Positions 1,613-52,384 of a DNA stretch of 64,000 bases are shown piece by piece; position 1 is the first letter of the stretch; each line of letters starts with the position of its first letter. The notes beneath the pieces were generated by a model. It searched no databases, was not told the DNA's origin, and was given only the letters and a program-made list of their open reading frames with translations. The translations under genes were made by a program, and so were the position numbers. The DNA lies in contig JAMCPX010000047.1 in the NCBI GenBank assembly GCA_023382265.1, forward strand, positions 25,310 to 89,309. Reading direction: 5' to 3'. This stretch comes from Deltaproteobacteria bacterium. Its GTDB lineage: Bacteria > JAMCPX01.

Positions 1613-3532
1613 ATGCACATGCCGGTGTTATTAAGCGTAATCAAGGGAGAAGTTGAAGCTATGTATAAACAAAAACACTTTATAAGCCTGCTCGAAGCTA
1701 TTACCCAAAAATCGGACATGTCGGATGATATAAAACAAAAATCGGTTGTACAGCTTGAAGCCTATCTCAAAAACGCCCCCTTTCTTGCAAAGTTTATTTT
1801 CACATTGCTGTTATACGCAGTTGAATACCTTCCCATGTTCACCAGACTTACGAGGCTTTCAAAAATGGATATCGATAGAAGGGCAGAGTACATAAGCGGA
1901 TTTAATGGGAGAATAGGCGGCATTGTTTTGATGGTACTCAAGCTATTCGTGACACTTTCATACTACTCTGTAGATGATATTGAACGCAAGCTCGGGTTTA
2001 CAAGGCATTGCGGGGATATCAAAGGAAGGGTCAAAAAACCCGTGTTTGTTGACGGGTCTAAAGCGGATAAAGATGTAAGCATAAACGCCGATGTATGCAT
2101 TATAGGCTCAGGAGCTGGCGGAGCTTCCGCTGCTTATGCAGCTGCAAGAGCCGGCATGAAAACCGTTATTCTTGAGGAGGGGCGGTACCTGACGGGTGAG
2201 GATTTCACTCAAAAGCCTGTAGATGCATTTGGAACCGTATACAGGGATCATGGGTTCATAACATCCTTCGGCACACCGCCGATAATCATCCCGCTTGGTA
2301 AGTCGGTAGGAGGTACGACGACCATAAACTCGGGGACCTGCTACAGGATGCCTTCATCTGTTATAAAAAATTGGCATGACCAGTACGGCATAGACTGGCT
2401 GACGGACGATGAATACAATAGGCTGGCTTCATCTGTAGAAAAAGAAATACATGTCGAGCCTGTACCTGATCGCATATCCGGCAAGAACAGCGGGCTTTTC
2501 AAGAAAGGCACGGAGGCACTTGGGCTTGCAGGCGCACCCATACCGAGAAATGCCTATGAATGCGATGGCTGCGCATTCTGTGCATTTGGATGCCCAAGAG
2601 ATGCGAAATACGGAACAATGCTGAATTTCATCCCTGATGCGATAAAGCACGGGGCGGCATTGTATTCGAATACAAAAGCTGTAAAACTTATAATAAATAA
2701 CAACAGGATTGAAGGCGTAAAAGGAGCTTTTCTCGACAGGTATGGGAAATCAACATCCAAACAGATTACGGTAAATGCAAAGCACGCTATTGTGTCTGCA
2801 GGTGCAATATATACGCCTATTTTCCTGAGGAAAAACGGCTTAAAACATCCCCTCATAGGCAAAAACCTTCATATCCATCCGGCAGCGCGTGTGTCAGCGG
2901 TGTTTAATGAGCGGGTTGATGGATGGGTCGGTGTGCCTCAGGGCTATAATATACATCACTATGTTGATGAAGGCATCTTCATACAGGGACAATTTGTACC
3001 TCCATCCATATTGTCCCAGTCTATTCCTTATATTGGCAAGCGTCATTCTGAACTGATGGACAAATATGCCTATATGGGCTCATTCGGTGCACTCATATCC
3101 GATACAGGCTCGGGCAGTGTTTCACCGGGCCTGAGCAGTCCAATGATTTTTTATACTCTTTCAAAAGAGGATCACGTAAAAATGGTAAAATCCATTGCAA
3201 TAACGGCAAAGGTCTGGTTTGCGGCAGGTGCAGCAGAAGTCCATACACAGATCGCAACCATGCCTGTAATACATAACGAAAAAGAGGCCGACGATCTACT
3301 TAACAAATTACCGCCTGCATGGGCGCTTGAACTCATGGCTTTTCATCCGATGGGTACTGTGATGATGGGTGGTAATGATAATACTGCAGTAGTAAAACCT
3401 GATGGGGAAACTTATGAGGTAAAAGGTCTTTATGCTGCAGACGCTTCTTTGTTCCCGACGTCAACAAAACTAAACCCGCAGATTACAATCATGAGTTTCG
3501 GTCTGAAGATAGGGGATGGGATTGGCAGGTAG
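1613..3532 (+). CDS. GMC family FAD-dependent oxidoreductase with ~160-aa N-terminal extension
   Basis: FAD-binding 'CIIGSGAGGASAAYAAARAG' only at aa ~165; GMC C-terminal region with 'GLYAADASLFPTS'; alternative start ATG 1661 (MYKQKHF) has a GGGAGA RBS. Confidence 0.8.
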   Translation: MHMPVLLSVIKGEVEAMYKQKHFISLLEAITQKSDMSDDIKQKSVVQLEAYLKNAPFLAKFIFTLLLYAVEYLPMFTRLTRLSKMDIDRRAEYISGFNGRIGGIVLMVLKLFVTLSYYSVDDIERKLGFTRHCGDIKGRVKKPVFVDGSKADKDVSINADVCIIGSGAGGASAAYAAARAGMKTVILEEGRYLTGEDFTQKPVDAFGTVYRDHGFITSFGTPPIIIPLGKSVGGTTTINSGTCYRMPSSVIKNWHDQYGIDWLTDDEYNRLASSVEKEIHVEPVPDRISGKNSGLFKKGTEALGLAGAPIPRNAYECDGCAFCAFGCPRDAKYGTMLNFIPDAIKHGAALYSNTKAVKLIINNNRIEGVKGAFLDRYGKSTSKQITVNAKHAIVSAGAIYTPIFLRKNGLKHPLIGKNLHIHPAARVSAVFNERVDGWVGVPQGYNIHHYVDEGIFIQGQFVPPSILSQSIPYIGKRHSELMDKYAYMGSFGALISDTGSGSVSPGLSSPMIFYTLSKEDHVKMVKSIAITAKVWFAAGAAEVHTQIATMPVIHNEKEADDLLNKLPPAWALELMAFHPMGTVMMGGNDNTAVVKPDGETYEVKGLYAADASLFPTSTKLNPQITIMSFGLKIGDGIGR

Positions 3533-3611
3533 GATAAATTCAGTTTTAGGGGGTTTGCAATTCTAAATGTTTGTGCTAATCTTTCTATAATGAATGATCG
3601 CAAATCAAATT

Positions 3612-3626
3612 TTCTAACGGGGTTTA
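3612..3626 (+). promoter_or_regulatory. TTCTAACGGGGTTTA motif copy 10 nt upstream of the radical SAM ATG
   Basis: 15-nt string identical to 8561-8575; related copies at 8471-8487, 8880-8891 and 8929-8943. Confidence 0.4.
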
Positions 3627-3635
3627 CATATACAC

Positions 3636-5039
3636 ATGCGTGAAGGGATAAAGCCAAACAATGTACTCTGCATCTACCCTTATGTAAAAGAGGTGCCTGT
3701 TTACGAGTTCTTTCCGCCCATAGGTCTTGAGTATGTCGCAACAGCTGTCAGCGATATGGTCGGGAGTATAAAAATTGTTGATTTCAGGTACGTGAAGGAC
3801 CCTATGAGTAATTTTACCCCTTCTATAGATACCGCTCTGGTGAGTGTGAACTGGAATTACACCTACGATGAAGTATGTGCCGTGATACGGCAGATTCCTC
3901 CGCAGGTCAGGGTCATCGTGGGAGGCCGGCAGGCCACGGATTTTGTCGAGGACCTTTTTAACAGGTGTCCGAACATATCCGTAATCGTAAGGGGGGAGGG
4001 TGAACTGACTCTGAGGGACCTGTTCAGCGGCAGGCCTATGGAAGAGGTGAAGGGCATATCGTATATGGACAACGGCAAAGTCATTCATAATGAATCCAGA
4101 CCGTTGTTTTCTCTTCAAGAAGTTAAGAGACCGGACCGGAGCTTAAGGACAACCAACTACCGTGCCACCATCAAGGGGATTGACCTGGGATTTGGATTCG
4201 ATGCCATTATGAGTTCGCGGGGATGCCCTTACAGCTGTAAATTTTGCAGCTTCAAGCTTAACCCACTGGGACAGCTGCGGAAATGGGAGGCGAGAAGTCC
4301 GGAATCTACGGTCGAAGAAATAGAGGAGATAGATGCCGATTTTGTTGCATTTGTAGACGACAATTTTACCGCTGACATGAAGAGAGTCGAGAAGATCTGC
4401 GACCTCATCATTGCAAAGGGAATAAAGAAGATGTTCCTGTGCAACGTACGGATCGATATCGCACGAAAACCTGCTTTGGTTGAGAAGATGAAGAAGGCGG
4501 GGTTTAAAATCCTTATGGTTGGACTGGAGTCTGCCCAGGACAAGTCACTGGACGCACTGCAGAAAGGCTTTAAAACAGCCAGGGTGAAAGAGGTATTCCA
4601 TGTCCTGGCAGGTTCGGGTATGCTCATAAACGGGTATTTTATTATCGGGATTATCGGTGAGGCTGAAGAGGAGATGCTGGAGATCTCAACGTATGCCCGT
4701 GATATAGGTATTGACTTCATTTCTTTAAGCAGGCTAAGGTGGGAGAAATTTTCCGCATTGGAGGATATTGTTAAAGTGAACAAGGGGTATTACATAGGTC
4801 AGGACAATGGCATATACTCGGACAAGTACGGACGGAAAGAACTGACGGCGATCCTGAAAAAGATCGATAGAAATTTTTACACCCCGTCTCAGATCAAGCA
4901 GATTGTAATAAAGGCATTCAGACTCCGCATTCTGACACCGCGCCGTCTGCTCAGACTGATGTACTATGTACCATACATTCTTATGAGGACCCATGCAAGC
5001 ACCAAAAGAATGAAGAAGGTTATGAAGCAGAACTCCTGA
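3636..5039 (+). CDS. B12-binding domain radical SAM protein
   Basis: N-terminal cobalamin-binding-like domain (PPIGLEYVATAV), CxxxCxxC-type cluster 'CPYSCKFCSF' with radical SAM core. Confidence 0.8.
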   Translation: MREGIKPNNVLCIYPYVKEVPVYEFFPPIGLEYVATAVSDMVGSIKIVDFRYVKDPMSNFTPSIDTALVSVNWNYTYDEVCAVIRQIPPQVRVIVGGRQATDFVEDLFNRCPNISVIVRGEGELTLRDLFSGRPMEEVKGISYMDNGKVIHNESRPLFSLQEVKRPDRSLRTTNYRATIKGIDLGFGFDAIMSSRGCPYSCKFCSFKLNPLGQLRKWEARSPESTVEEIEEIDADFVAFVDDNFTADMKRVEKICDLIIAKGIKKMFLCNVRIDIARKPALVEKMKKAGFKILMVGLESAQDKSLDALQKGFKTARVKEVFHVLAGSGMLINGYFIIGIIGEAEEEMLEISTYARDIGIDFISLSRLRWEKFSALEDIVKVNKGYYIGQDNGIYSDKYGRKELTAILKKIDRNFYTPSQIKQIVIKAFRLRILTPRRLLRLMYYVPYILMRTHASTKRMKKVMKQNS

Positions 5040-23941: not shown

Positions 23942-24916
23942 TCATTTTATAGCTTTCTTTTTAAGAAGCTTGAAAAGATGCCTCCATCCAAAAATAAGAG
24001 GGAATCTGTGATCCCATTTCGTAAGGTTAAGTTTCTCCCCTGTTGTCCGCTCGATCTTTGTCTCAAGATAATCAACATAATTCTTGAACGTGTACACGCC
24101 TTTTGGCCATCTGTAAACGGCACGTCTTCTGCCTCTGCTTATAAATCCTTTTACATATTGCTTGGAAAAATATGCATTTATAACTTCATATTTCCCTCCC
24201 GATTTTTTTACGGTATTATTGTTTATCTCCTGTTCAAGAAGCATCGTATAAATGGTTTTATAAAAATCAGGTTCGCTTTCATAAATGCTTAGAATTTTAT
24301 CGGGTGTTTCTGTTCGTATCTCCGCTCTATAGCTAAGACCAAGAAGGGTTAAAATGAATTCATCCATTGTGAATTCTTTGCCGTTAATATCGGATAAGGC
24401 GAGCATGACATTAAAGTGCAGTGCATTATAAATGTTTTCAATCAAATCAAGCAATACCTGCTCATTTTTAACATACATAATGCCGATCCTCTTCGTGAGC
24501 CTGCCTGCTATATAAAGGTCATTTGTTTTTTTTGCGTCGGCTGCATCCCTGAATCCCTTCATATCGATAACGCAGTATTTTGACGGCATGATCACGGCGT
24601 TTTTTTCTATTTTTAAGAAATAAGAATTTGGTGGAACGATATTATTTAATGCAGCATGAACACGGGATTTATAAAACCGCATATAATTGTTAACTATAAT
24701 ATAAAAATCAGGATAGCTGGAGTTTGTTGCCATTCTTGAGCTCAAGGTAGAACCGTAAGTAAAAATTATTTCAATGCCCTTAAATGTATTGAGAAAATAG
24801 TTGAGAAACAGGTCGGTAGTTTCTGACCGATAAGGGTAGTATTTCTTTGTTACAAGTTCTTTTATCTGTTCAGTATAATGGGTGTTCGTCGGCATTGGCT
24901 GATATGATGCTTTCAT
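23942..24916 (-). CDS. Tam41/Mmp37-like protein (putative phosphatidate cytidylyltransferase, non-CdsA type)
   Basis: 324 aa; blocks 'FTYGS', 'DFYIIV', 'LYIAGRLTKRIGIMYVKN', 'GLSYRAEIRTETPDKI' align with the yeast Tam41 blocks 'FGYGSGVF', 'DIILGV', 'FYLAGRLQKPVKILKN', 'ALSYAGDIRYKLGGENPDKV' (recalled from memory). Confidence 0.5.
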   Translation of the reverse strand: MKASYQPMPTNTHYTEQIKELVTKKYYPYRSETTDLFLNYFLNTFKGIEIIFTYGSTLSSRMATNSSYPDFYIIVNNYMRFYKSRVHAALNNIVPPNSYFLKIEKNAVIMPSKYCVIDMKGFRDAADAKKTNDLYIAGRLTKRIGIMYVKNEQVLLDLIENIYNALHFNVMLALSDINGKEFTMDEFILTLLGLSYRAEIRTETPDKILSIYESEPDFYKTIYTMLLEQEINNNTVKKSGGKYEVINAYFSKQYVKGFISRGRRRAVYRWPKGVYTFKNYVDYLETKIERTTGEKLNLTKWDHRFPLIFGWRHLFKLLKKKAIK

Positions 24917-25949
24917 GGTTTATTATATGATCATTGTTTATCCAGTGTTTAAACTTTAAACCCATTATGTTTGTCCTTATTGATTCGGGAACAATAAAGA
25001 AATTCAATGCAGGCCCGTTCTCAATGATAACGTCGGTTTCATTATCATCTGTAAGTTCCCCGTCTATCCCATACCCTGATTCTGACTGTATCGTTACTCT
25101 GTGAGCGAGATCATTAAAAGATTTCGGATGCAGTAATTTTCCCGTAGAGAGTGTCCTGACATTTGCTATGATTTCGAACGGATCCATGGATACGGCAAGA
25201 AAATAGAAATCATATATGGCTTTCCTTTCGGGCTTATAAAATGGTTTAAACCAGAGAATAAGCTTTTTTAATACAGACGCAACGGCGATTAAGATCTTAC
25301 CGTCCGCATACGGTTTATTATCTATAATAATATGCACTTTTACCTTTTCAAAATAGCTCTTTGATTTTTTATTTCCGATTATATATCCTCCAATGGCTGT
25401 TGTTACAACCGTTGTAGCTGTTTGAAAACTTGGCTGTCCTGTTGCATAATAAAGCTTCTGCAGTTTAAAAGCGATTCCGTTTGAAAATGTAAATCCATAC
25501 CTTTCACCATGTTTTTTATCTGTAATTTTTAAAAGCATCATGGGTACTGTTGAGAGCTTTTCATCACCATTACGGTATCTCCGTATGTGCTGCATAATTA
25601 GCTTTACAGTCTCTACCGGATTTTTTCTTATCCCAAGGTTATTGGCAACCATGTTCATTGTTCCGCCCCTCAAAGGCAGAATGATGGGCAGTTTATTCGA
25701 AGGCAAGGATTTTATCATTTGTGTAAGTGTAACTTGCAGAGTGCCGTCTCCACCGTTGATCATCACAAGGTTTATGCCTTCCCTTTTTATAAAATCTAAA
25801 GCGGTCTCGATATCATCTGTGGAGTAGGTATCAAAGGTAAAAGTATTATCAAGTATGTAAGGAATAAACTTATCCCTGTTATAACCGTTTATCCTGTTCT
25901 TACGAGCGTTCATATTGTTTATTATGCATGAGCGAATTTCCATATTCAC
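24870..25949 (-). CDS. DAGK-catalytic-domain lipid kinase (YegS/BmrU-like)
   Basis: 'LVMINGGDGTLQ' and 'LPLRGGTMNMVANNLG' diacylglycerol-kinase catalytic motifs; 47-bp overlap with the Tam41-like gene. Confidence 0.75.
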   Translation of the reverse strand: MNMEIRSCIINNMNARKNRINGYNRDKFIPYILDNTFTFDTYSTDDIETALDFIKREGINLVMINGGDGTLQVTLTQMIKSLPSNKLPIILPLRGGTMNMVANNLGIRKNPVETVKLIMQHIRRYRNGDEKLSTVPMMLLKITDKKHGERYGFTFSNGIAFKLQKLYYATGQPSFQTATTVVTTAIGGYIIGNKKSKSYFEKVKVHIIIDNKPYADGKILIAVASVLKKLILWFKPFYKPERKAIYDFYFLAVSMDPFEIIANVRTLSTGKLLHPKSFNDLAHRVTIQSESGYGIDGELTDDNETDVIIENGPALNFFIVPESIRTNIMGLKFKHWINNDHIINHESIISANADEHPLY

Positions 25950-26073
25950 CCCCGTATCTATTTATATACATTTTCCAATATTTTTGTCAGCTTTTATTCC
26001 CGGCTCAACATAACAATAGCAAAATCTATCTATGCACTGATGGACCAATCAGCGTTGCTCCGGGTATAGGCTT

Positions 26074-26670
26074 TCATTTAGTGTCAACGCCGTTATTCCG
26101 TTTAATCCTGTAATCAATGATGGAACAGATTATATGTCCGATTGTTATATGTGCTTCTTGAATTCTTGGCGTATCCGTATGATCAATAATAACAGGAAAA
26201 TCAACCATTGACTTTGCTTTGCCTCCGCCGCTGCCGAGCAAACCGATCGTTATCATACCTTTTTCTTTTGCCGTTTTAAATGCGCTAAGAATGTTTTTAG
26301 AATTTCCCGAGGTTGTAATGCCGAGTGCCAGATCATTCTTTTTACCGAGCGCATAAAGCTGTTTTGAAAATATGTCATCGAATGAATAATCATTTGCTAT
26401 GCTCGTTAAAATGGATGTGTCCGTGGCAAGCGATATTGCAGGCAGGGGTTGTCTTTCTATCTTGAATCTGTTCACAAATTCTGCTGCGATGTGCTGGGCA
26501 TCAGCAGCAGAGCCGCCATTACCGAAAATGAACAGGACATGACCTTCCGTGATTGCATTGTAAATTATGTCCGCTACCTCTTTTATAAGTTCTGCATGCG
26601 TGTTTATTAAGCCAAGCTTTAATTCGGCGCTTGATCTCAATTCTGATTTTATAATTCCGATTTCATCCAT
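26074..26670 (-). CDS. gmhA: D-sedoheptulose-7-phosphate isomerase (SIS domain)
   Basis: 'GNGGSAADAQHIAAEFVNRF', 'TTSGNSKNIL' closely match GmhA. Confidence 0.85.
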   Translation of the reverse strand: MDEIGIIKSELRSSAELKLGLINTHAELIKEVADIIYNAITEGHVLFIFGNGGSAADAQHIAAEFVNRFKIERQPLPAISLATDTSILTSIANDYSFDDIFSKQLYALGKKNDLALGITTSGNSKNILSAFKTAKEKGMITIGLLGSGGGKAKSMVDFPVIIDHTDTPRIQEAHITIGHIICSIIDYRIKRNNGVDTK

Positions 26671-26672
26671 AC

Positions 26673-28148
26673 CTATTTACCCGTGTAATCATAACCCCTG
26701 TATAGAGTAAACGATCGTCTGATATCACCCGTTTTATTATCAACTATGTTGATTACACCAAGCCTTTTTACCTTTTTAAAAAGTCCTTGCGTAACATCAT
26801 TAAGCTGACCTGTTCCACGATCCACTATGATCATGTTTTTACCTTCTAAAGTTTTTTGATTCTGAAAATAGAGATATGCGTTTTTAGCACTATTGTTTAC
26901 CTTTAAAAAATAAACCTCAGGCTGCCCTGGCAGGTAAAACGCGAGTTCTGCCGTGATGCCATAATCGGTAGCACCGACAAGTTCTCCTGATTTAATATAT
27001 TTTTTTGTCTGCATTGCAAGTTGATTCCATCCGGCAAGTCTATTTGAAAAGTGGCGGGCAGGCGGGATATCAAATGTTTTATATACCCATTCCGGATAGT
27101 GTTCAAAATATGTTATCAGCAATGTAGTTATAAACATAAGTGATAAGAATGCTATTATTAGTTTTCTGTAGCCTTTTTTATATTGGTCAACGAGTAAGCT
27201 GACGCCGCCGATAAAAGGGGCGATATATCCTGCCGCGGGCCAGTTAACCTCTGCCCTGCCTTTGAAAGCGAGGAATGTTATAAATAGAAACGTCGGCAAG
27301 GATGTAGCAAGTATTACATTAAATCTCTCATCGTGTCTGAATAACCCTTTGCGTATTGAGTATAGCATTGTATAAAAAACAAGTAAGAATACAAAAGGTG
27401 TAAGCACCCCCATGTCTCCAAAAAAAAATGTTGAGAACACAAACCATGGATTATAATGCGAAGGCATGAGGCTAAGTGCCCTTTTAAACATGCCGAAACC
27501 GTGCTCAAAATTCCAGATAAAAACAGGGCTTGCCGTTATAATTGTCAATACTGCACCCAAATAAGGTTCTTTCTTAAAGAGCCAGTGCCTATTCCTGTTT
27601 GAAATAAGCACAAACAACACAACTTCAAGGCTAAAAAAGAAGAACATGTGATGGCTTAATATCCCGAGTCCAAGCACTATACCTATTAAATACCAGAGCC
27701 ACGGCTTTTGATTTTTATTCAATTCAAACAGCAAGAATATGAGTATGGTCATAAACAGGATCTGAGGTACGTAATAAGTCGCTATAAATGCATTGGAAGC
27801 AACAAAGGGATTAAATATAAAAAGCGCCGTTGCTGTCAATGCTGTTGTAGGCGAGAAAAATCTGTTCCCGATCTCGTAGAAGATGATTGCCGTAACTGTT
27901 GAAAATATGTTTGCACCCATTCTGAGTGCGAATTCGGATGAACCAAAAAAATGGATCATAACCATATTGATCCACGAGATCATCGGGCCCATATCAAGGT
28001 AACTAAGGGCCGGATGCCTTGCCCAATCCCAGTAATATGCTTCATCGGGTGAAAGCAATAGATGGGCTGTTTTTATATAATAGGTGTTCAGAACAAATGC
28101 GAGCAGAATAATGCTGTACCCGATTATACGCTTTTTCATAAGGGACAC
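26673..28148 (-). CDS. Glycosyltransferase family 39 / ArnT-like polyprenyl-phosphate-sugar-dependent transferase
   Basis: ~12 TM helices; 'DEAYYWDWARHP' motif of PMT/ArnT-type GT-C enzymes; 2-bp gap to gmhA. Confidence 0.8.
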   Translation of the reverse strand: MSLMKKRIIGYSIILLAFVLNTYYIKTAHLLLSPDEAYYWDWARHPALSYLDMGPMISWINMVMIHFFGSSEFALRMGANIFSTVTAIIFYEIGNRFFSPTTALTATALFIFNPFVASNAFIATYYVPQILFMTILIFLLFELNKNQKPWLWYLIGIVLGLGILSHHMFFFFSLEVVLFVLISNRNRHWLFKKEPYLGAVLTIITASPVFIWNFEHGFGMFKRALSLMPSHYNPWFVFSTFFFGDMGVLTPFVFLLVFYTMLYSIRKGLFRHDERFNVILATSLPTFLFITFLAFKGRAEVNWPAAGYIAPFIGGVSLLVDQYKKGYRKLIIAFLSLMFITTLLITYFEHYPEWVYKTFDIPPARHFSNRLAGWNQLAMQTKKYIKSGELVGATDYGITAELAFYLPGQPEVYFLKVNNSAKNAYLYFQNQKTLEGKNMIIVDRGTGQLNDVTQGLFKKVKRLGVINIVDNKTGDIRRSFTLYRGYDYTGK

Positions 28149-28687
28149 CCGTAAAAGAATTTAAAATGATATTTCAGATAAAGTATGATTGTTACAAAAA
28201 TAAAACCAAGCCATGCATTGTATTCTTCATGTTTTATTACAAGTTTAATGTCAAAATCTTTTGTTAGCCTTACGGGTTTTAATTTTGGGAAAAATATAGG
28301 CACCTTTGTTTTATAATCAAGGAATTCAGCACCGAATAGCTCTATGAGCATTTTCTCTTCGCCTTTAATCACATTATAATAAACAAAATAAAAGCCCGCG
28401 AGGTAGATTATGATAAATATAGCGCTGCTACCCATAATAGATACGCCAAGCCCTATAAAAAAGCTGCCGAGATATAATGGGTTTCTTGTGTAAGAGTATG
28501 GCCCATCCACAGATAACTGCTTATTCTTTTTTATATGGCCCGATGCCCATAGTCTTATCATTAAACCAATAATACCTATAGGCAGACCAACGGTCATTCC
28601 CATTATATCCGGACTGGCTGCAAAAATAAACAATATTGCAAACACAAATCCTATCTGTATACGGTATTTGGATAAAAACTTGTTCAT
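28136..28687 (-). CDS. ICMT/PEMT-family membrane methyltransferase
   Basis: 183 aa, 4-5 TM; 'RNPLYLGSFFIGLG' and C-terminal 'EE..L...FG..Y..Y' isoprenylcysteine carboxyl methyltransferase-family motif; 13-bp overlap with GT39 gene. Confidence 0.65.
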   Translation of the reverse strand: MNKFLSKYRIQIGFVFAILFIFAASPDIMGMTVGLPIGIIGLMIRLWASGHIKKNKQLSVDGPYSYTRNPLYLGSFFIGLGVSIMGSSAIFIIIYLAGFYFVYYNVIKGEEKMLIELFGAEFLDYKTKVPIFFPKLKPVRLTKDFDIKLVIKHEEYNAWLGFIFVTIILYLKYHFKFFYGCPL

Positions 28688-36123: not shown

Positions 36124-37415
36124 ACATCAATTATGTATCATTTCAACCATTGGAAAGGCTTGAAGGAATAATAATAGTTCCCGGGGATAAATCCATTTCC
36201 CATAGAGCGCTGTTCATATCATCACTTGCCTCCGGGATAAGCCGTATAAATAATATCTTGATTGCAGAAGATGTCCTGAGTACTATAGTGTGTTTAAGAA
36301 TGCTTGGTGTCGATATCAAATTAACGGGGAATTCGGTTGTTGTAAAAGCAGACGGTATCGATAGTTTTAAAGAGCCTGCCGGTGTACTTAATGCAGGGAA
36401 CTCGGGCACAACAACAAGGATAATACTCGGGATATTGAGTACAAGGAATTTTTTCTCTGTAATAACAGGGGATGACTCTTTAAGCTCAAGACCCATGAGA
36501 CGTATCACAGCTCCGCTTATGATAATGGGTGCATCTATAGACGGTAGAGATAATGGAAACTATCTGCCTGTATCAGTAAGAGGAGGGGGACTAAAAGGTA
36601 TTAATTACAATATGCCTGTAGCATCTGCTCAGGTAAAAACAGGCTTAATATTGGCATCTACCGGTGCAAAAGGTGTGATGAGTATAAAAGAGCCTATAAG
36701 CACAAGAGATCACACGGAAAGAATGCTTAAGGCAAGCGGTGTAAATTTAAAAACAGAGGACAATACTATAGAGCTTAGCTGTTCTCAGAAACCTTTGCCG
36801 TTGAATATCGTGATTCCAGGTGATTTTTCTTCTGCTGCGTTTTTTATTGGTGCCGCACTTATAGCAAAAGAATCGGATGTCTTGATAAAGGGTGTAGGGA
36901 TAAACTATGGAAGAACAGGCTTGCTGGATATAGTAAAAAGCATGGGTGCAAAAATAGAACTTCTCAATGAAAGATATGAAACGGGTGAGTCTGTCGCTGA
37001 TATACATATTAAACCTGCAAAACTCAAAGGCATTGTTATTGATGATAAATCTCTTATCGTAAGGTCCATTGACGAGATCCCGGTACTTGCAGTGATCGCT
37101 GCTTGTGCTGACGGAGAAACGGTTATAAGACACGCTGAAGAATTAAGGGTAAAAGAGACTGATCGTATAAAAGCCGTTGTTGAAGGTTTGACAGCTCTTG
37201 GCATAAAGGCAAAAGAACTCGATGATGGCATGGTTATACAAGGCGGAACAATAAAAGGAGGAACTGTAGACAGCCATGATGATCACAGAATCGCAATGGC
37301 TTTTGCAATATCTTCCGTAGCAAGTACAAAGGAAGTTTTTATTAATGATTTTAATGCTGTGGGTATTTCTTTCCCGGAGTTTATGGATATATTTAATACA
37401 TTGAGGCATCGATGA
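36120..37415 (+). CDS. aroA: 3-phosphoshikimate 1-carboxyvinyltransferase (EPSP synthase)
   Basis: 431 aa; 'PGDKSISHRAL', 'LNAGNSGTTTR', 'DHRIAMAFA' motifs. Confidence 0.9.
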   Translation: MNINYVSFQPLERLEGIIIVPGDKSISHRALFISSLASGISRINNILIAEDVLSTIVCLRMLGVDIKLTGNSVVVKADGIDSFKEPAGVLNAGNSGTTTRIILGILSTRNFFSVITGDDSLSSRPMRRITAPLMIMGASIDGRDNGNYLPVSVRGGGLKGINYNMPVASAQVKTGLILASTGAKGVMSIKEPISTRDHTERMLKASGVNLKTEDNTIELSCSQKPLPLNIVIPGDFSSAAFFIGAALIAKESDVLIKGVGINYGRTGLLDIVKSMGAKIELLNERYETGESVADIHIKPAKLKGIVIDDKSLIVRSIDEIPVLAVIAACADGETVIRHAEELRVKETDRIKAVVEGLTALGIKAKELDDGMVIQGGTIKGGTVDSHDDHRIAMAFAISSVASTKEVFINDFNAVGISFPEFMDIFNTLRHR

Positions 37416-38968
37416 AAAAATCTGTAATTATAGCAATCGACGGGCCTTCCGGCAGCGGTAAAAGCACTATAAGTACTGCGGTTGCCCGCATGCTTGGGTT
37501 CAATTATATAAATAGCGGCAGTCTTTACAGGGCCATTGCTTTAAAGGCTTTAAACAGCCGTATCGCGATTGAAGATGAAAAAAGTATTTCGAAAACGGCA
37601 TTGAATACTATCTTTGAGATCAAAAGGGTTGGGAATAGATGGGTATTGTTTATGGATAATATAGACATAAGTCTCGCAATAAAGGCTCCAGAAATTGCTC
37701 AAGCTTCCTCTCAGGTATCAACACTATCGGGGATCAGAGATATAATCAATAAACTCATTAAGGGGATGATAAAGGGCAATACTGTTGTGGAGGGCAGGGA
37801 TATTGGTACTGTCGTATTCCCTGATGCGGCACTCAAATTTTTTCTAACAGCCTCTGTAGACGAAAGAGCAAAGAGGAGATATCAAGAACTTTTATCATCA
37901 CGGATTGGTAAACCGTATGAGATCATACGTAAAGAAATTGATGACAGGGATATGAGAGATACTTCAAGAGATATTGCCCCTTTAATAGCCGCTCGTGATG
38001 CTATTATTGTTAATACGGATAACATGTCTGAGCACGATGTGGTGATCAAGCTTTATGATAAGGTAAAAGCAACATTGTCTCTTAAATTTATAGATAATGT
38101 AAACGGCATAGAGCTTTATACAACAGCATCCGCTGGCTTTTGCTTTGGGGTAAAAAGGGCTATAGATATAGCCGTTAAAACGGTAAAGCAAGAAAAAGAG
38201 ATCTATACTCTTGGCCCTCTTATACATAATCCACAGGAAGTAAAAAGGCTCGAGGACATGGGCATAAAACCCGTGAATGATATTGATACAATGACATCAG
38301 GAACTCTTATATATAGATCACATGGGGTTACTACAGAGGAGCATCAAATAGCAAAAGAGAAATCGTTAAAAACCATAAACGCTACATGCCCGTTTGTCAC
38401 AAGATCGCAAAGGCTTGTAAAAAGTCTTACGAATAGCGGTTATTATGTGGTTATAGTAGGGGATGCCAATCATCCGGAAGTGAAAAGCCTGTTAAGCTAT
38501 GCCTCCGGCGGGCAGGTAACAGCTGTAAAGAATGCACAGGAGATCAGTACAATTGGTAAGGTTAAGAAACTTGCCGTACTTGCCCAGACAACCCAGTCAA
38601 TGGAAAATTTTAAAAATGTGATCTCCGCTCTTGTTGACGATGTTTATGAACTTGTTATTTATAATACCATATGTGATGCTACAAGAATAAGGCAGGATGA
38701 GGCTGCGTTGCTTGCCATGGCAGTAGATGTTGTAATCGTTGTAGGCGGGTTCAACAGCTCGAATACAAATAAGCTTGCAAATATATGTAAAGCGATTAAC
38801 CTTAAGACATATCATATAGAACATCCTGTACATATAAAGGAAGAAATGTTGATAGATGCTAAAAAAATTGGTATTACGGCAGGTGCATCCACACCTATAT
38901 GGTTGATCAGAGATGTTTTAATTAGACTAAAGAAGATGAGCAGAAAATTATCAAAAACTTATATATAA
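37412..38968 (+). CDS. ispH: Fusion protein: cytidylate kinase (N) + 4-hydroxy-3-methylbut-2-enyl diphosphate reductase IspH/LytB (C)
   Basis: N-terminal 'IAIDGPSGSGKST' Cmk P-loop (~220 aa); from ~aa 225 'GFCFGVKRAI' IspH start with three conserved Cys (~290 aa); one continuous 518-aa ORF. Confidence 0.85.
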   Translation: MKKSVIIAIDGPSGSGKSTISTAVARMLGFNYINSGSLYRAIALKALNSRIAIEDEKSISKTALNTIFEIKRVGNRWVLFMDNIDISLAIKAPEIAQASSQVSTLSGIRDIINKLIKGMIKGNTVVEGRDIGTVVFPDAALKFFLTASVDERAKRRYQELLSSRIGKPYEIIRKEIDDRDMRDTSRDIAPLIAARDAIIVNTDNMSEHDVVIKLYDKVKATLSLKFIDNVNGIELYTTASAGFCFGVKRAIDIAVKTVKQEKEIYTLGPLIHNPQEVKRLEDMGIKPVNDIDTMTSGTLIYRSHGVTTEEHQIAKEKSLKTINATCPFVTRSQRLVKSLTNSGYYVVIVGDANHPEVKSLLSYASGGQVTAVKNAQEISTIGKVKKLAVLAQTTQSMENFKNVISALVDDVYELVIYNTICDATRIRQDEAALLAMAVDVVIVVGGFNSSNTNKLANICKAINLKTYHIEHPVHIKEEMLIDAKKIGITAGASTPIWLIRDVLIRLKKMSRKLSKTYI

Positions 38969-47650: not shown

Positions 47651-47968
47651 ATGGGTCGACCGAAAAAAAGACAACCCATAAAATACCCTAACTTTTATAA
47701 ACCTTACGATTTAAAGAACCACATTAAATCATTATTAACCATCATGTCCATGGTTGTAAGGGATAACAGTTTATTAAATGAATACTGGGTTGCGGGCTTA
47801 ACCATGTTTGCTGCTGCCACAGGCAGATTTGATAGCGCGTACAAGTCCCATCATTATGGGATTCGCATACAGCATATAGCTGACCGAGATCTGTATAAAG
47901 CATATAATGAAAGGCTGGATCCTGCATTGCAATGTATGGCAGTATTACAGGCAGAGAGACCCCTATAA
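47651..47968 (+). CDS. Hypothetical protein
   Basis: 105-aa ORF, no similarity recognised; may be non-coding. Confidence 0.2.
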   Translation: MGRPKKRQPIKYPNFYKPYDLKNHIKSLLTIMSMVVRDNSLLNEYWVAGLTMFAAATGRFDSAYKSHHYGIRIQHIADRDLYKAYNERLDPALQCMAVLQAERPL

Positions 47969-48071
47969 ATGTTGTGTATGTCTGTGTAAGTATATAAACT
48001 CCATCTGTTGTTATCGGACATCCAGGGCATACTGTTGATGTAAAATGTAGTCTATCTTCACGTTTGTAATA

Positions 48072-48452
48072 TTATTGATTATACCACCATGTGGATTGTG
48101 GAATATCAGCCTCTATCGCAAAAACATTCCCTTCCCCATCAGCATAGTTCTGAACAACAGGTAACAGTGACCTTAATGGAACTGGATTGTTAAATAATGC
48201 GTAAAGATCTTCACCAATGGCATCTGGTACTTGTTGTATAAGTGAGGCGCTCACCGTTGAAACAAAAAAGTTAAGGTCAGACGGCTTAATTATACGCGGC
48301 TCCTCATTATTAAGGTTACCAATTATCTTACCAAGAAAATCATCCAATGCACCTGCAAATGCTCTATTCATGCTTGAGCCTATCACTATTGTACCATCAG
48401 TTTGAGGGAAACCAATCATCATTATAAACGGACTTATATAATTATCAATCAT
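48072..48452 (-). CDS. Hypothetical protein (126 aa), translationally coupled to upstream gene
   Basis: ATGATTGA start/stop overlap with 48445..49131; no signal peptide; no recognisable domain. Confidence 0.45.
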   Translation of the reverse strand: MIDNYISPFIMMIGFPQTDGTIVIGSSMNRAFAGALDDFLGKIIGNLNNEEPRIIKPSDLNFFVSTVSASLIQQVPDAIGEDLYALFNNPVPLRSLLPVVQNYADGEGNVFAIEADIPQSTWWYNQ

Positions 48453-49131
48453 GCAATAACGGTTCTACACAATTAACTGTCTGCGTTGAATCTGTAATAT
48501 AGCACCCAAAATGGATTGTATCAGATGTTACCGGCTCTCCAACTATGAAGCCATTATGATTATTATCAAAATACGCAATAACCTTGTTAATATTATTGTC
48601 CTCTGCAATGAGGGCATTCCCCATCCCCTGCATGGACTGAAGCATACCTGTTATATCGGTCTTAACATCGGTAAAGTATTGAGCACCGGATGCGTCAGGA
48701 ATTGTGCTGAATGAGAGAAAGTCAGGACAGTTGTAAACAATGTTTCCCATTGCTCTGAATACCGCAAGAGGGGCATACTGAAGCTGGGTACTATTCAAGC
48801 CTCCTATCCAGGATAAAAGCGGAGAGAGTACGCAATTGGTATCGTAATTATATGATGAAAGTAGATCAATAATTGCCTTTAATACATAAGCGGTTGAGCT
48901 TATAGCCTTTGCCTCCGGCAAACCCCATTGCCTGCCGAGAACAAGGTTGAGAGATATTTGCGGGACAGAAGGCATTAAAAGCTTTAATACACTCATATCG
49001 GGCTGAATATGGAGGGGAAGGGTATCAAGGGTAAAGCCACAGTTGTGTTGCTCAATGAATGTGGTGTGTGTAAGAATCAGCGATATATCAGAGGTGATAC
49101 CGGTAAACTGTACTGCTACGTTGTCAGCCAT
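48445..49131 (-). CDS. Hypothetical protein (228 aa)
   Basis: No signal peptide or known motif; part of the minus-strand operon 52384->48072. Confidence 0.45.
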   Translation of the reverse strand: MADNVAVQFTGITSDISLILTHTTFIEQHNCGFTLDTLPLHIQPDMSVLKLLMPSVPQISLNLVLGRQWGLPEAKAISSTAYVLKAIIDLLSSYNYDTNCVLSPLLSWIGGLNSTQLQYAPLAVFRAMGNIVYNCPDFLSFSTIPDASGAQYFTDVKTDITGMLQSMQGMGNALIAEDNNINKVIAYFDNNHNGFIVGEPVTSDTIHFGCYITDSTQTVNCVEPLLHD

Positions 49132-49140
49132 AACACCTCT

Positions 49141-49389
49141 TTACAGATTATTAATAAAAGTGGTTGCCTGATTGTTCATAATATCCTGGCTTGCGGCAAG
49201 CACCATGCCCCAGTGTGCATCGCAACTGTTCGGATTAGCTTTTAGTGCTTGAGAGAATTGTACCAAAGCATCCTGCGGCGAGCTATTCAAAATCGCATTT
49301 TTACCGGTATTGATAAGAGGCGAGATATCGACTGATTTATGGGCATTGCCGCACTCTGCGAACAACACCATGATACCGGAAACAATCAT
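49141..49389 (-). CDS. Small TPR-like hypothetical protein
   Basis: Start set at internal Met (MIVSGIM) to avoid overlap with upstream gene; 'ALVQFSQALKANPNSCDAHWGMVLAASQ' looks like one TPR hairpin. Confidence 0.3.
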   Translation of the reverse strand: MIVSGIMVLFAECGNAHKSVDISPLINTGKNAILNSSPQDALVQFSQALKANPNSCDAHWGMVLAASQDIMNNQATTFINNL

Positions 49390-49420
49390 TTCTCTTGTCT
49401 TTATCTTTATAAAACCTCCT

Positions 49421-50605
49421 CTATGGGTATATCTTGGTGTATTCCACTGTACCGGTTGGTGACAACGACATATTATAGCCTTCTGTTGTAAATGTATATC
49501 CACCAAGGGTATAAAGATAGCCATTATACTGCACAAACTGCACACCTGCCATAGTAGCAAAAGGAGCACCTAAATTTGTTGACATACTTGGTATCCATTT
49601 ATTTAATGAGTCGTCTGTATTTATCTGAATCCTTTGAACACCATCGAAAAATGAAAGTGTGGAAGAGGAGAACTCATACATGCCATATAAAACATACAGC
49701 CAGTTATTATATGTTGCTGCCCCAATTATGGAAACAGGATTTATTGTTAATGGGGCATTTGTGTCGGTAATCCAGTCTCCTACAGAGCCATCAACTCCAA
49801 TTGCTGCATAAGATGGGGATGATAGTGGAATCAACGAAGAATAGAATGAGCCTGATGATGAAGTTGAAGGGAATAGAGCTGCCAACCCTCCACCCAATAG
49901 ATAAATCCTGTTACCTATTGCAATACTTGTTACGCCATAAGGTATTGTTATTGTAGGGGATACGGCCATCCATGGGGTAAATGGGATGGATGTATCAGAG
50001 ATCCATGAGCCTAAAGAACCATCCTGATTTATCATGCAGTGAGATGTCTTTAATAAAGCCTGCGAAGACTGTGCGGATAAACATGATATCGTATACGCAT
50101 TATTAAAATTACATAGAGGGGCAATTTCATACATCCATTTATCTGAAATAAGTAGTATAGTTGATTGTGTACAAGGTGAAATAGGCAGTGTTGAAACTGT
50201 TTGCCATACACCAAGACTGTGATCCGACTGGATATCTGTCTTTAGAATATCACCATTGGTAAAGTTTACCGCATATAGATAATTATTGTATTGTAACAGG
50301 GCTTGATAGCTACCCGTCGGTAATAATGAGGTATCGCTTATCCATTGTCCAATATCGCCATCTGATAATATTGGCGCCCTTACTGTTGTATTTTCTGAAA
50401 AACTTACTGCATACATCCAGCCATTATATTCTATTGCTCTAAAAGGAATACCTGTATCGTTTATTGGCACAGAGGATGATGCAAACTGCCACTGTCCAAG
50501 ATGACCTGGACCCGTATCAGATGTAACCTTTACACCAGATGTATATGATGTACAGCTACTGAGGAGCAGGAGTAAACATGTTAATAATTGTAAGTAAGTC
50601 TTCAT
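49421..50605 (-). CDS. Kelch-like six-bladed beta-propeller lipoprotein
   Basis: Lipobox 'LLLSSC'; six repeats of 'NxY(L/M)Y(A/V/L)..GG...D.S(L/V)G.W(I/Q)(S/T)DT'. Confidence 0.55.
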   Translation of the reverse strand: MKTYLQLLTCLLLLLSSCTSYTSGVKVTSDTGPGHLGQWQFASSSVPINDTGIPFRAIEYNGWMYAVSFSENTTVRAPILSDGDIGQWISDTSLLPTGSYQALLQYNNYLYAVNFTNGDILKTDIQSDHSLGVWQTVSTLPISPCTQSTILLISDKWMYEIAPLCNFNNAYTISCLSAQSSQALLKTSHCMINQDGSLGSWISDTSIPFTPWMAVSPTITIPYGVTSIAIGNRIYLLGGGLAALFPSTSSSGSFYSSLIPLSSPSYAAIGVDGSVGDWITDTNAPLTINPVSIIGAATYNNWLYVLYGMYEFSSSTLSFFDGVQRIQINTDDSLNKWIPSMSTNLGAPFATMAGVQFVQYNGYLYTLGGYTFTTEGYNMSLSPTGTVEYTKIYP

Positions 50606-50635
50606 AAGATTGTCCTCCTTATAATAATTATATAC

Positions 50636-52384
50636 TTATTTCACCCAAAGTTGAAGCCTGTCATATATACCAATAGCTTTTCCATGAGCATTAAACGGCA
50701 TTGGCGACCCATGGATAAGCGTTTTTATTCCAAGCCCAAGCGGAAGATTTGCATATTCCATAAGTAATGATTTTACATAATCCAGCACCTCTCCTAATTG
50801 GGGACTTGCATACCTATGGATAAAATCAATGAAATAAATAATCGTGTTGACTTCATCTCTGGTAAACACTTTGTTTGCCAGTTGCGGTGGAAGTTTTCCG
50901 TTATTTGTAAGGAGCGCTTTTACTATAGGGAGGTATTGTGTTATTAGCTCCCTTGCCTGTCCTATAAGTTGTGGATGTTCTAACATTATTTTTGTGATCT
51001 CAGGGCTGTATTCGTAATAAAGTGCTACAAGTAATTCCCCTTCATATCCTTTAGATAAAACACGATCCCTGAAGCTTCTTATTAATGGAATATTGGTTTC
51101 TAAAGAAGTTCCCCTTAGAGCTGCGGTCACAAAGCAGCAACTGTTTGAATAAGGATTAGTTCCTGTTACATTTATGGTAGTAGAGGTAAACATAGTAAAA
51201 TTCATTTCCGGACATGACTGATCACCAGGTAAATCATCATAGAGTAGTGCAACCAATAGTGGATATGAAACAGTGCATTCACTAACTGGAGCTGTTATTG
51301 GCAATGAAATACTTGTTTGATCAGAACCGCTTGGATATGGTGTTAAGGAATAGTTCCAAGAGCTATAATTGTTATAGATAGACCCATAATAGTTGTTATA
51401 TGGATATATTAGAGGGAAGACATCCGGATTAGAATAATTACCGAAATTATTAAGCCCTGCTACATGAAAAAGATAGTCAGGATTGTAAAAAGATTCTAAT
51501 CGTGGTGAGACATTTTCTATTGTAATATTAAGGTTTGTAGATTGCCCTGCTTGCAGGTTTGTTGGTTGAAGTGTAAACTGTGCGGTTGAATAAAGGGGCG
51601 CATAAGTTTCATTTGAAACAAGAAAGGGATCGTTAAAGATGTATAACAATACTTCCTTAAATGGAACTTCAAAGTAACCCACAGAAGTAGATATGCCTAA
51701 TAATCTATTTCCATTTAATAAATCTTGTACATTACTTTTTATATCATCATCTATTATTGGACAAGGACCCGCGTCATCAATAGTAGGGTTACCGGTAACT
51801 GAACAATGACTTCTGTAAACATTTACTGTTATATGTGTAAAATTTAAACCAAGTGTTGCAACCGAAAGATTTGAAGGTGGTTGAATAACAGTAGTAGTCA
51901 TATATACATCTGCTACAACACTCCCTACATAGTTAACTGATAGAGTTTCATATTGGCAATTGAGCGGATCTACATAGCGTATGTGCCCTGTTGTTTGAGT
52001 AATATTTAAGGTTAGGTGGAGGTGAATACTCTGGATAGGTGATACCCACGTCGTTATATAATTCATAGTGATAGAGGGAATATTACCATAGACCGTTATA
52101 CCATTGGAATTACCATTACACGCAGTTGATCCTGATAGTAGATTACATTCACATAGGTATGAGAAGCCAAATGATCCAGTAGTAGTAGGGAAGATAGCAT
52201 TGCTGTGTATATTTTGTAGTATCACTGAGCTTGCTCTATTTAGGACCACTTGTGGTAACTGACACTGGGAAGCAGGGTAATCAGCTTTTACATTATTGGT
52301 AATAATAAAACTTATACCCAACAAATTTATTATTAAAAACCTCTTTAATATTTTCTTAACATCCTCCTTTGTAAATTTTATCAC
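50636..52384 (-). CDS. Large secreted Asn/Tyr/Thr-rich protein with conserved C-terminal 'CCFVTAALRG...LIRSFRD' domain
   Basis: Signal peptide; ~400-aa low-complexity beta-rich region; C-terminal ~170 aa resembles the 'CFxxTAAxGS...LRxFRD' cassette seen at C-termini of some secreted proteins (recalled from memory). Confidence 0.5.
   Translation of the reverse strand: MIKFTKEDVKKILKRFLIINLLGISFIITNNVKADYPASQCQLPQVVLNRASSVILQNIHSNAIFPTTTGSFGFSYLCECNLLSGSTACNGNSNGITVYGNIPSITMNYITTWVSPIQSIHLHLTLNITQTTGHIRYVDPLNCQYETLSVNYVGSVVADVYMTTTVIQPPSNLSVATLGLNFTHITVNVYRSHCSVTGNPTIDDAGPCPIIDDDIKSNVQDLLNGNRLLGISTSVGYFEVPFKEVLLYIFNDPFLVSNETYAPLYSTAQFTLQPTNLQAGQSTNLNITIENVSPRLESFYNPDYLFHVAGLNNFGNYSNPDVFPLIYPYNNYYGSIYNNYSSWNYSLTPYPSGSDQTSISLPITAPVSECTVSYPLLVALLYDDLPGDQSCPEMNFTMFTSTTINVTGTNPYSNSCCFVTAALRGTSLETNIPLIRSFRDRVLSKGYEGELLVALYYEYSPEITKIMLEHPQLIGQARELITQYLPIVKALLTNNGKLPPQLANKVFTRDEVNTIIYFIDFIHRYASPQLGEVLDYVKSLLMEYANLPLGLGIKTLIHGSPMPFNAHGKAIGIYDRLQLWVK

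Follow-up and report, generated by a model that had tools for sequence, protein, structure and literature searches.

Two overlapping genes, one for a lipid kinase and one for a homolog of the mitochondrial cytidylyltransferase Tam41, raise the question of whether they encode consecutive steps of one pathway and, if so, which lipid that pathway activates. They lie in a 64,000-nucleotide (nt) stretch of a deltaproteobacterial contig (JAMCPX010000047.1, positions 25,310 to 89,309), referred to below as the window. The original prediction, made from the letters alone, described two overlapping open reading frames (ORFs) on the same strand, of 359 and 324 amino acids (aa) and sharing 47 nt, and proposed that they convert diacylglycerol (DAG) through phosphatidate to cytidine diphosphate-DAG (CDP-DAG) independently of CdsA. 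Both frames are present as described, on the minus strand, together with all the motifs that were quoted for the two proteins, and both genes are real, with orthologs at 50-63% identity (E 1e-100 to 1e-150). Our analyses of homology and genomic association suggest that, whatever the lipid, the pair probably performs kinase-then-cytidylyltransferase chemistry.

A Tam41-like nucleotidyltransferase and a DAGK_cat kinase

Membership of the second protein in the Tam41/Mmp37 family, as proposed from its motifs (FTYGS, DFYIIV, LYIAGRLTKRIGIMYVKN, and GLSYRAEIR..PDKI), is supported by sequence, predicted fold, and active-site motif. The protein scores 54.5 bits against Pfam PF09139 (Tam41_Mmp37; gathering cut-off 24, E 1.6e-14), and its best sequence match in a single-sequence phmmer search of the PDB is SpTam41 from S. 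pombe (6ig2, E 8.6e-6). A profile built from 24 family members reaches 6ig2 at E 1e-11 and the Firmicutes enzyme FbTam41 (7ecd) at E 2e-8, with the YGS, D-F, KY, AGR, SY..R, and E positions lining up in the alignment with these structures. The AlphaFold2 (AF2) model (predicted local distance difference test (pLDDT) 80.8, predicted template modeling (TM) score 0.79) consists of a nucleotidyltransferase (NTase) domain followed by a helical/winged-helix domain, and the top two matches of the model in a Foldseek search of the PDB were 7ecd (E 3e-11, TM 0.56/0.66) and 6ig4 (E 1e-8). Assignment to another NTase family was rejected, the aminoglycoside NTases appearing at E 1e-4 or worse, about seven orders of magnitude behind Tam41.

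The Tam41 family is distinguished by the retention of one carboxylate of the [DE]h[DE]h NTase motif, together with hG[GS] (PMC2794190, PMC11646218). The window protein has YGS at residues 54-56 and a lone carboxylate, D70, within D-F-Y-I. Across 150 diverse family representatives, D70, P96, K113, R139, R201, and K287 are invariant and Y54, G55, and S56 are kept in at least 90%; the catalytic residues were assigned from this conservation and from the 6ig2 and 7ecd alignments. SpTam41 is likewise built of an NTase domain followed by a winged helix, and the C-terminal region of Tam41 is positively charged, amphipathic, and membrane-binding (PMC7018664). The last 60 aa of the window protein carry a net charge of +10, and its windows of highest hydrophobic moment fall at residues 258-290, where the model is helical with a pLDDT of only 54-65; a membrane-binding role would be consistent with these features. 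The window protein shares with Tam41/TAMM41 and FbTam41 (6ig2/6ig4, 7ecd) the Pfam family, the NTase plus winged-helix fold, the single carboxylate, the YGS/D-F/KY/AGR/SY..R residues, a basic C-terminal region, and a predicted peripheral rather than integral membrane character, but it is only about 18% identical to the solved structures. It is predicted to be a CTP:lipid-phosphate cytidylyltransferase, and a near-identical copy is labeled "phosphatidate cytidylyltransferase" by NCBI. A bacterial Tam41 has already been solved (7ecd) and, as cited in PMC11646218, assayed (Kimura 2022). The family is large: when 1.84 billion representatives were scanned in full with HMMER, 2243 clusters (at 50% identity) had E<=1e-3, and of these 627 reached E<=1e-30. 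Much of its bacterial part is effectively unannotated, PF09139 recognizing just 68 of the 150 best family representatives at E<=1e-3.

The identification of the first protein as a DAG kinase-like lipid kinase also stood, with a match to Pfam DAGK_cat at 39.7 bits (cut-off 23.6, E 4.2e-10). Its likeliest start, ATG 25943, agrees with the alignment of orthologs and with the length of 357 aa called in public records; in the numbering of the 359-aa ORF, the motifs GGDGT, GGTMN, and DGE fall at residues 66-70, 95-99, and 296-298, and GGDGT, GGT.N, and the C-terminal DGE are invariant in an alignment of 26 kinase homologs. The AF2 model (pLDDT 91.7) matches DgkB (5e-16), SphK1 (2e-14, with the highest TM, 0.66), AGK, and YegS, all between E 1e-12 and 1e-16, so that the fold search does not distinguish the pocket of a DAG kinase from that of a sphingoid or ceramide kinase. 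Like DgkB, YegS, and BmrU and the eukaryotic SphK1 and AGK, the protein folds into two domains, binds nucleotide through predicted GGDGT and GGT.N motifs, and has the C-terminal DGE, but it is only 10-17% identical to them, carries an extra C-terminal tail of about 45 aa, and, unlike them, represents a subfamily of its own that travels with Tam41-like genes. Its scores against the lipid-kinase equivalogs of NCBIfam lie far under the cut-offs (best 28.9 bits against 274; TIGR00147, 21.1 against 118.65) and place it, by sequence, in the DAGK_cat superfamily outside every named NCBIfam subfamily (DgkB/YegS/BmrU).

A paralogous kinase (P0040, MCL4478606.1; loci L017/L018), 47% identical to the window kinase, is encoded in a metagenome-assembled genome (MAG) that also holds a near-identical copy of the window genes. 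Its gene is flanked on one side by lptE, holA, and RACo-like genes and on the other by a gene for a 733-aa family 2 glycosyltransferase (GT2) with a weak MGS_GT match, and heptosyltransferase and GT4 genes lie near. The window lineage thus has two kinases of the same subfamily, both in envelope-lipid surroundings.

Pairing, overlap, and fusion of the two genes across lineages

Thirty-four loci were assembled for comparison of neighborhoods, with scans of genomes and metagenomes by clade-specific peptide patterns contributing 11 and 6 loci, respectively. Within the clade of the window, where Tam41-like proteins are 50-60% identical, the kinase gene adjoins the Tam41-like gene only in the window and in L008 (kinase/Tam41-like identity to the window proteins 63/56%), with two short contigs as possible further cases, and an orthologous kinase gene (59% identity) stands alone at another locus. 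On the other hand, every more distant lineage sampled keeps the pair, namely L014/L023/L024/L025 (about 39/38% identity, 4-nt overlap), L026 (38/39%), and L031 (30/28%, 4-nt overlap), and the junction from kinase to Tam41-like gene overlaps by 1-8 nt throughout L008, L014, L023-L026, and L031. The kinase-to-Tam41-like order is thus found in four deep lineages in which the flanking genes are mutually unrelated and the two proteins diverge in step. The neighborhood survey that had been suggested as a check on the prediction therefore shows a pair conserved in distant lineages, despite being unlinked in 10 of the 12 loci that are informative within the clade of the window.

The two activities also occur in one polypeptide. 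P0199 (662 aa; L034, 3135-6378) is a natural fusion of an N-terminal DAGK_cat domain and a C-terminal Tam41-like domain, which match the window proteins at E 1e-17 and E 8e-26, respectively, and its gene lies 17 nt downstream of a gene for a 412-aa CDP-alcohol phosphotransferase (CDP-OH_P_transf), so that in this locus three consecutive steps of a predicted pathway would be encoded by two genes. CDP-alcohol phosphotransferase genes adjoin family members in L027-L029 as well as in L034. The conserved gene order, the overlapping junctions, the fusion, and the CDP-alcohol phosphotransferase next door together make a strong case for a pathway running from kinase to cytidylyltransferase to CDP-alcohol phosphotransferase, and they support the functional unit that the original prediction had proposed on grounds of chemical logic.

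In the window itself, the overlap suggests that the two genes are transcribed together and coupled in translation. Between them there is no convincing terminator, and promoter-like sites are no commoner than in shuffled sequence (24 versus 22.5).

In the pathway that we propose, the soluble DAGK_cat kinase would, judging by its family and fold, transfer phosphate from ATP to the free hydroxyl group on a membrane lipid with two chains. The Tam41-like NTase would bind the membrane by means of its basic C-terminal region and transfer CMP from CTP to the lipid phosphate, yielding a CDP-lipid and pyrophosphate, as Tam41 homology, the conserved active-site residues, and the genomic association suggest. 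A CDP-alcohol phosphotransferase encoded elsewhere would then use the CDP-lipid to add a polar head group, as the loci of relatives indicate; tblastn found no such cpgA-like gene in the 64-kb window. The sequence from lipid alcohol to lipid phosphate to CDP-lipid would resemble the canonical conversion of DAG to phosphatidate to CDP-DAG by DgkA and CdsA, but the folds are unrelated, and the canonical enzymes are integral membrane proteins, whereas both window proteins are predicted to be soluble or peripheral.

A different arrangement is seen in P0203 (594 aa, from a JGI metagenome), where an NTP_transf_3/IspD/MobA-like nucleotidyltransferase is fused to a C-terminal Tam41-like domain; its N-terminal domain and the CpgD-type cytidylyltransferase of Caulobacter share a Pfam clan.

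Relation to the Caulobacter cpgB-cpgC genes and the identity of the lipid

Two loci of relatives bear on the lipid. In L031, the pair abuts genes for a serine palmitoyltransferase (Spt, which scores 620 bits on NF047599, where the cut-off is 500), an acyl carrier protein (ACP), a CerR-like reductase of the NAD-epimerase type, and LptF/LptG; by tblastn, the kinase and the Tam41-like protein of this locus match those of the window at E 3e-13 and E 7e-23, respectively. L027 (1-6738) and L029 have a Tam41-like gene without an adjoining kinase gene, among genes for NTP_transferase, LptF, LptG, a metallophosphoesterase, an OlsC/LpxO-like acyl 2-hydroxylase, and a 394-aa, PIP-synthase-like CDP-alcohol phosphotransferase, a set that closely matches CC_1152-CC_1161 of Caulobacter. 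The composition of L031 and L027 mirrors the sphingolipid region of Caulobacter crescentus (CC_1152-CC_1168), which carries cpgA (with a CDP-alcohol transferase domain), cpgB, cpgC, spt, acpR, cerR, lptF2/G2, the phosphoesterase gene CC_1158, and the gene for the cytidylyltransferase CpgD (PMC9393093, PMC11324152, PMC12275187, bioRxiv 10.64898/2026.04.12.717747).

In that region, cpgB (CCNA_01218/CC_1160) encodes a ceramide kinase with a DAGK/LCB5 domain and lies adjacent to cpgC (CCNA_01219/CC_1161), the two forming a genetically defined unit that leads from ceramide through ceramide-1-phosphate to ceramide phosphoglycerate (CPG) (PMC9393093, PMC11324152). In vitro, CpgB is comparably active as a kinase on ceramide and on DAG (bioRxiv 10.1101/2023.05.01.538943). 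Zik et al. found that a cpgC deletion retains ceramide phosphate without CPG, and stated that CpgC "has no conserved domains" (PMC9393093), which fits the recognition of just 68 of 150 family representatives by PF09139. Olea-Ozuna et al. (2024) noted a CDP-DAG-synthase-like InterPro domain on CC_1161/CpgC and considered that it might form a nucleoside diphosphate-activated ceramide (PMC11324152); papers of 2025-2026 still call the mechanism of CpgC unidentified (PMC12275187, PMC13228409). The statement in the original prediction that such a unit had not been described is thus overstated, since cpgB-cpgC was already defined genetically and the CDP-DAG-synthase-like domain already noted.

From gene position, locus composition, and the InterPro remark, we regard the window pair as a probable distant member of a cpgB-cpgC-type module, and the locus would then be a new member of this type in an uncultivated Gram-negative lineage. 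As in Caulobacter, a DAGK_cat kinase gene lies directly upstream of, and on the same strand as, a Tam41-like gene whose product is close in size to CpgC (about 310 aa). Homologs of both window proteins stand beside spt, ACP, and CerR-like genes in L031, and in other relatives a cpgA-like CDP-alcohol phosphotransferase, LptF/G paralogs, a phosphoesterase, and an NTP-transferase adjoin. The differences are that the window pair is 26-30% identical to the Spt-linked pair and that the window is without spt, cerR, bcerS, cpgA, and lptF2/G2, having a short-chain dehydrogenase/reductase (SDR) neighbor and upstream lipopolysaccharide (LPS)-modification genes instead. That the window protein works like CpgC is itself a hypothesis drawn by analogy. 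When 20 family members were looked up by name, a Myxococcales MAG and Arhodomonas were the sole sources returned, and neither Caulobacter nor Sphingomonas was represented.

By this analogy, we tentatively favor ceramide as the lipid, in an anionic sphingolipid route from ceramide through ceramide-1-phosphate to CDP-ceramide, while giving this assignment slightly less than even odds. Ceramide is favored because the sole studied homologous pair acts on ceramide and because the informative neighborhoods of homologous pairs are all sphingolipid loci. It is also favored because phosphatidate is made de novo, so that a phosphatidate cytidylyltransferase would have no evident use for a dedicated kinase that is translationally coupled or fused to it; ceramide-1-phosphate exists only via a kinase. 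An outer-membrane lipid product would fit the GmhA, ArnT-like, and LmtA-like genes upstream of the pair and the position of the paralogous kinase gene beside lptE and LPS glycosyltransferase genes, a context that is not conserved.

Several points weigh against ceramide. A tblastn search with L031 queries (E<=1e-3) that covered the 64-kb window and about 20 loci from the window, L014, and L026 clades found no gene for Spt, a CerR-type reductase, or a sphingolipid ACP, so that nothing at the locus level indicates ceramide synthesis by the organism. The window protein is, moreover, the family member most like the phosphatidate-using Tam41 in its Pfam score, the Spt-linked members having no Pfam Tam41 match, and in most loci from the clade of the window the kinase gene is separate. 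The first head-group step in Caulobacter does not require the CDP-alcohol transferase CpgA (PMC9393093, PMC11324152), a poor fit to a simple scheme of CDP-ceramide plus CpgA. The equivalence with cpgB-cpgC was drawn from position, composition, and a published remark, and in the literature searched no paper reported CDP-ceramide or tied Tam41, by name, to bacterial sphingolipids.

In the version of the original prediction, which we consider possible but doubtful, the kinase would convert DAG to phosphatidate and the Tam41-like protein phosphatidate to CDP-DAG, as a DAG-salvage or CdsA-independent route into phospholipids. All biochemically characterized Tam41 enzymes, from eukaryotes and, according to PMC11646218 (citing Kimura 2022), from Firmicutes, use phosphatidate (PMC7018664); the window clade is the top scorer among the sampled bacterial clades on the eukaryote-based Pfam model, with SpTam41 as the best PDB sequence match; CpgB-type kinases phosphorylate DAG in vitro (bioRxiv 10.1101/2023.05.01.538943); tblastn found no spt, cerR, or ACP homolog in the window or in any locus outside L031; and the GT2 beside the paralogous kinase P0040, with its weak MGS_GT match, may be a DAG-using glycosyltransferase. 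Yet Tam41 acts without a partner kinase, its phosphatidate coming from transport or de novo synthesis, whereas the window gene is kinase-coupled and some relatives are kinase-fused, and a glycerolipid substrate leaves unexplained why a partner kinase is kept adjoining in four lineages and fused in P0199. Homologous pairs with informative neighbors, moreover, lie in sphingolipid and not in glycerolipid loci. Were the substrate nevertheless DAG or phosphatidate, a Gram-negative bacterium would be making CDP-DAG with soluble enzymes unrelated to CdsA, a route that is likewise unreported.

Another reaction or another lipid is, taken jointly, unlikely. A different reaction, in which the Tam41-like protein uses its NTase fold for direct addition of a head group (glycerate) or for a nucleotide other than CTP, appears improbable. 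In its favor, the addition of glycerate to ceramide phosphate is the role that Zik et al. proposed for CpgC (PMC9393093), the step does not need CpgA (PMC11324152), and of the three canonical NTase carboxylates the family retains one (PMC2794190), here D70. Genuine Tam41 proteins share this single-carboxylate site, however, and are active cytidylyltransferases (PMC7018664, PMC11646218); the residues held in common with SpTam41 (YGS, D, KY, AGR, SY..R, E) are invariant or nearly so in the 150 representatives; CDP-alcohol phosphotransferases adjoin family members; and direct glycerate addition is energetically unfavorable according to Olea-Ozuna et al. (PMC11324152).

More improbable still is activation of some other lipid alcohol (a polyprenol, monoacylglycerol, alkylglycerol, or free sphingoid base, for example), which the conserved SDR may supply or modify. 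The gene for undecaprenyl-diphosphatase (bacA) follows the Tam41-like gene in several loci of the window's clade, the SDR is better conserved than the Tam41-like protein, and lipid A/LPS-modification genes lie upstream in the window, but the adjacencies of bacA and of the SDR gene to the Tam41-like gene are confined to one syntenic sub-lineage and absent from the other pair-keeping lineages. To our knowledge, DAGK_cat kinases act on DAG, ceramide, sphingosine, monoacylglycerol, or phosphatidylglycerol, and not on polyprenols. Coincidental adjacency of two unrelated pathways, to which the unlinked kinase genes of most window-clade loci and the solitary orthologous kinase gene might point, is scarcely credible and is rejected because order and overlapping junction are kept in four lineages at 28-40% identity amid unrelated flanks and because a natural fusion exists.

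Returning to ceramide, three points were not stated in the literature searched: that sequence profiles (and, in the case of the window protein, the predicted fold) relate the family to Tam41, that in distant lineages it accompanies a dedicated kinase, to which it is fused in one protein, and that its genes lie beside those of CDP-alcohol phosphotransferases. Together they yield a concrete, testable mechanism in which CTP and a lipid phosphate give a CDP-lipid. Formation of CDP-ceramide, if true, would explain the CpgC step after ceramide-1-phosphate in the synthesis of anionic sphingolipids by Caulobacter, and would mean that bacteria build anionic sphingophospholipids through CDP-ceramide. 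One may go further and suppose that the pair and a large, mostly unannotated bacterial family make CDP-ceramide in a "CDP-ceramide pathway" parallel to the Kennedy CDP-diacylglycerol pathway, a generalization that is conceivable and that we put forward with reserve. The module would reach well past the Caulobacterales and Sphingomonadales into uncultivated lineages, and the annotation "phosphatidate cytidylyltransferase" may misname the substrate of kinase-linked bacterial Tam41 homologs. The CpgC-type family, Tam41-like, large, often kinase-linked or fused, and encoded next to CDP-alcohol transferases, may be of more interest than the locus itself.

Surroundings of the pair in the window

The pair sits in a run of minus-strand genes in the 20-30 kb region of the window (Table 1), and a search for Rfam families at 20-31 kb gave no match.

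Table 1. Positions in the window of the kinase and Tam41-like genes, their junction, and neighboring genes
Feature	Positions	Strand	Remarks
DAGK_cat-family lipid kinase gene, predicted soluble	24870..25943	minus	357 aa from ATG 25943; longest ORF from GTG 25949 = 24870..25949, 359 aa
Shine-Dalgarno-like GGGGG	25949..25953	minus	5 nt 5' of kinase ATG 25943; read off the sequence
Tam41/Mmp37-family nucleotidyltransferase gene	23942..24916	minus	324 aa; or 317 aa from Met8, ATG 24895, the start of most orthologs
Overlap of kinase 3' end and Tam41-like 5' end	24870..24916	minus	47 nt; 26 nt with ATG 24895 as start of the second gene
Classical SDR gene, 276 aa	22941..23771	minus	ATG 23771; 170 nt downstream of the Tam41-like gene; Pfam adh_short E 2e-52
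GmhA-type sedoheptulose-7-phosphate isomerase gene	26074-26670	minus	upstream of kinase
ArnT/PMT_2-like GT-C glycosyltransferase gene	26673-28148	minus	upstream of kinase
ICMT/PEMT-type methyltransferase gene	28136-28687	minus	best NCBIfam match, below cut-off: Leptospira lipid A 1-phosphate methyltransferase LmtA

In the window's clade, 10 of the 12 informative loci have the SDR gene next to the Tam41-like gene, in two orientations and contexts and with products 72-75% identical, and no SDR gene stands beside the pair in the other lineages. In nine of these ten loci it is divergent from the Tam41-like gene, within a syntenic FtsH-FolP-CdaA-YbbR-GlmM / SDR / Tam41-like / BacA-SSB block; in the window it lies downstream on the same strand. 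Across L001-L007, L010, L011, L020, and L022, the SDR is better conserved (72-75%) than the neighboring Tam41-like protein (52-58%). Searches of NCBIfam and the PDB gave the SDR no specific assignment, the best matches being generic FabG, 17beta-hydroxysteroid dehydrogenases, and hydroxybutyrate dehydrogenases; roles as 3-ketosphinganine reductase or acyl-dihydroxyacetone phosphate reductase were considered, and evidence was found for neither. The SDR is a possible third partner in the window's clade only.

The three genes upstream of the kinase resemble a cluster for modification of lipid A/LPS; a gap of 124 nt separates them from the pair, with which they may be co-transcribed. The remainder of the window contains no informative lipid genes. 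Elsewhere on the minus strand (about 47740-52300), six successive genes (247, 327, 394, 82, 228, and 236 aa) without a recorded Pfam match are flanked by a NUDIX gene and a GH57/DUF4912 pair. On the plus strand, the gene for a 639-aa GMC oxidoreductase, extended at its N-terminus by about 150 aa, precedes that for a 467-aa B12-binding radical SAM protein (1613-5039), and a 518-aa protein that combines cytidylate kinase (Cmk) and LytB/IspH domains is encoded between aroA and rpsA (37412-38968).

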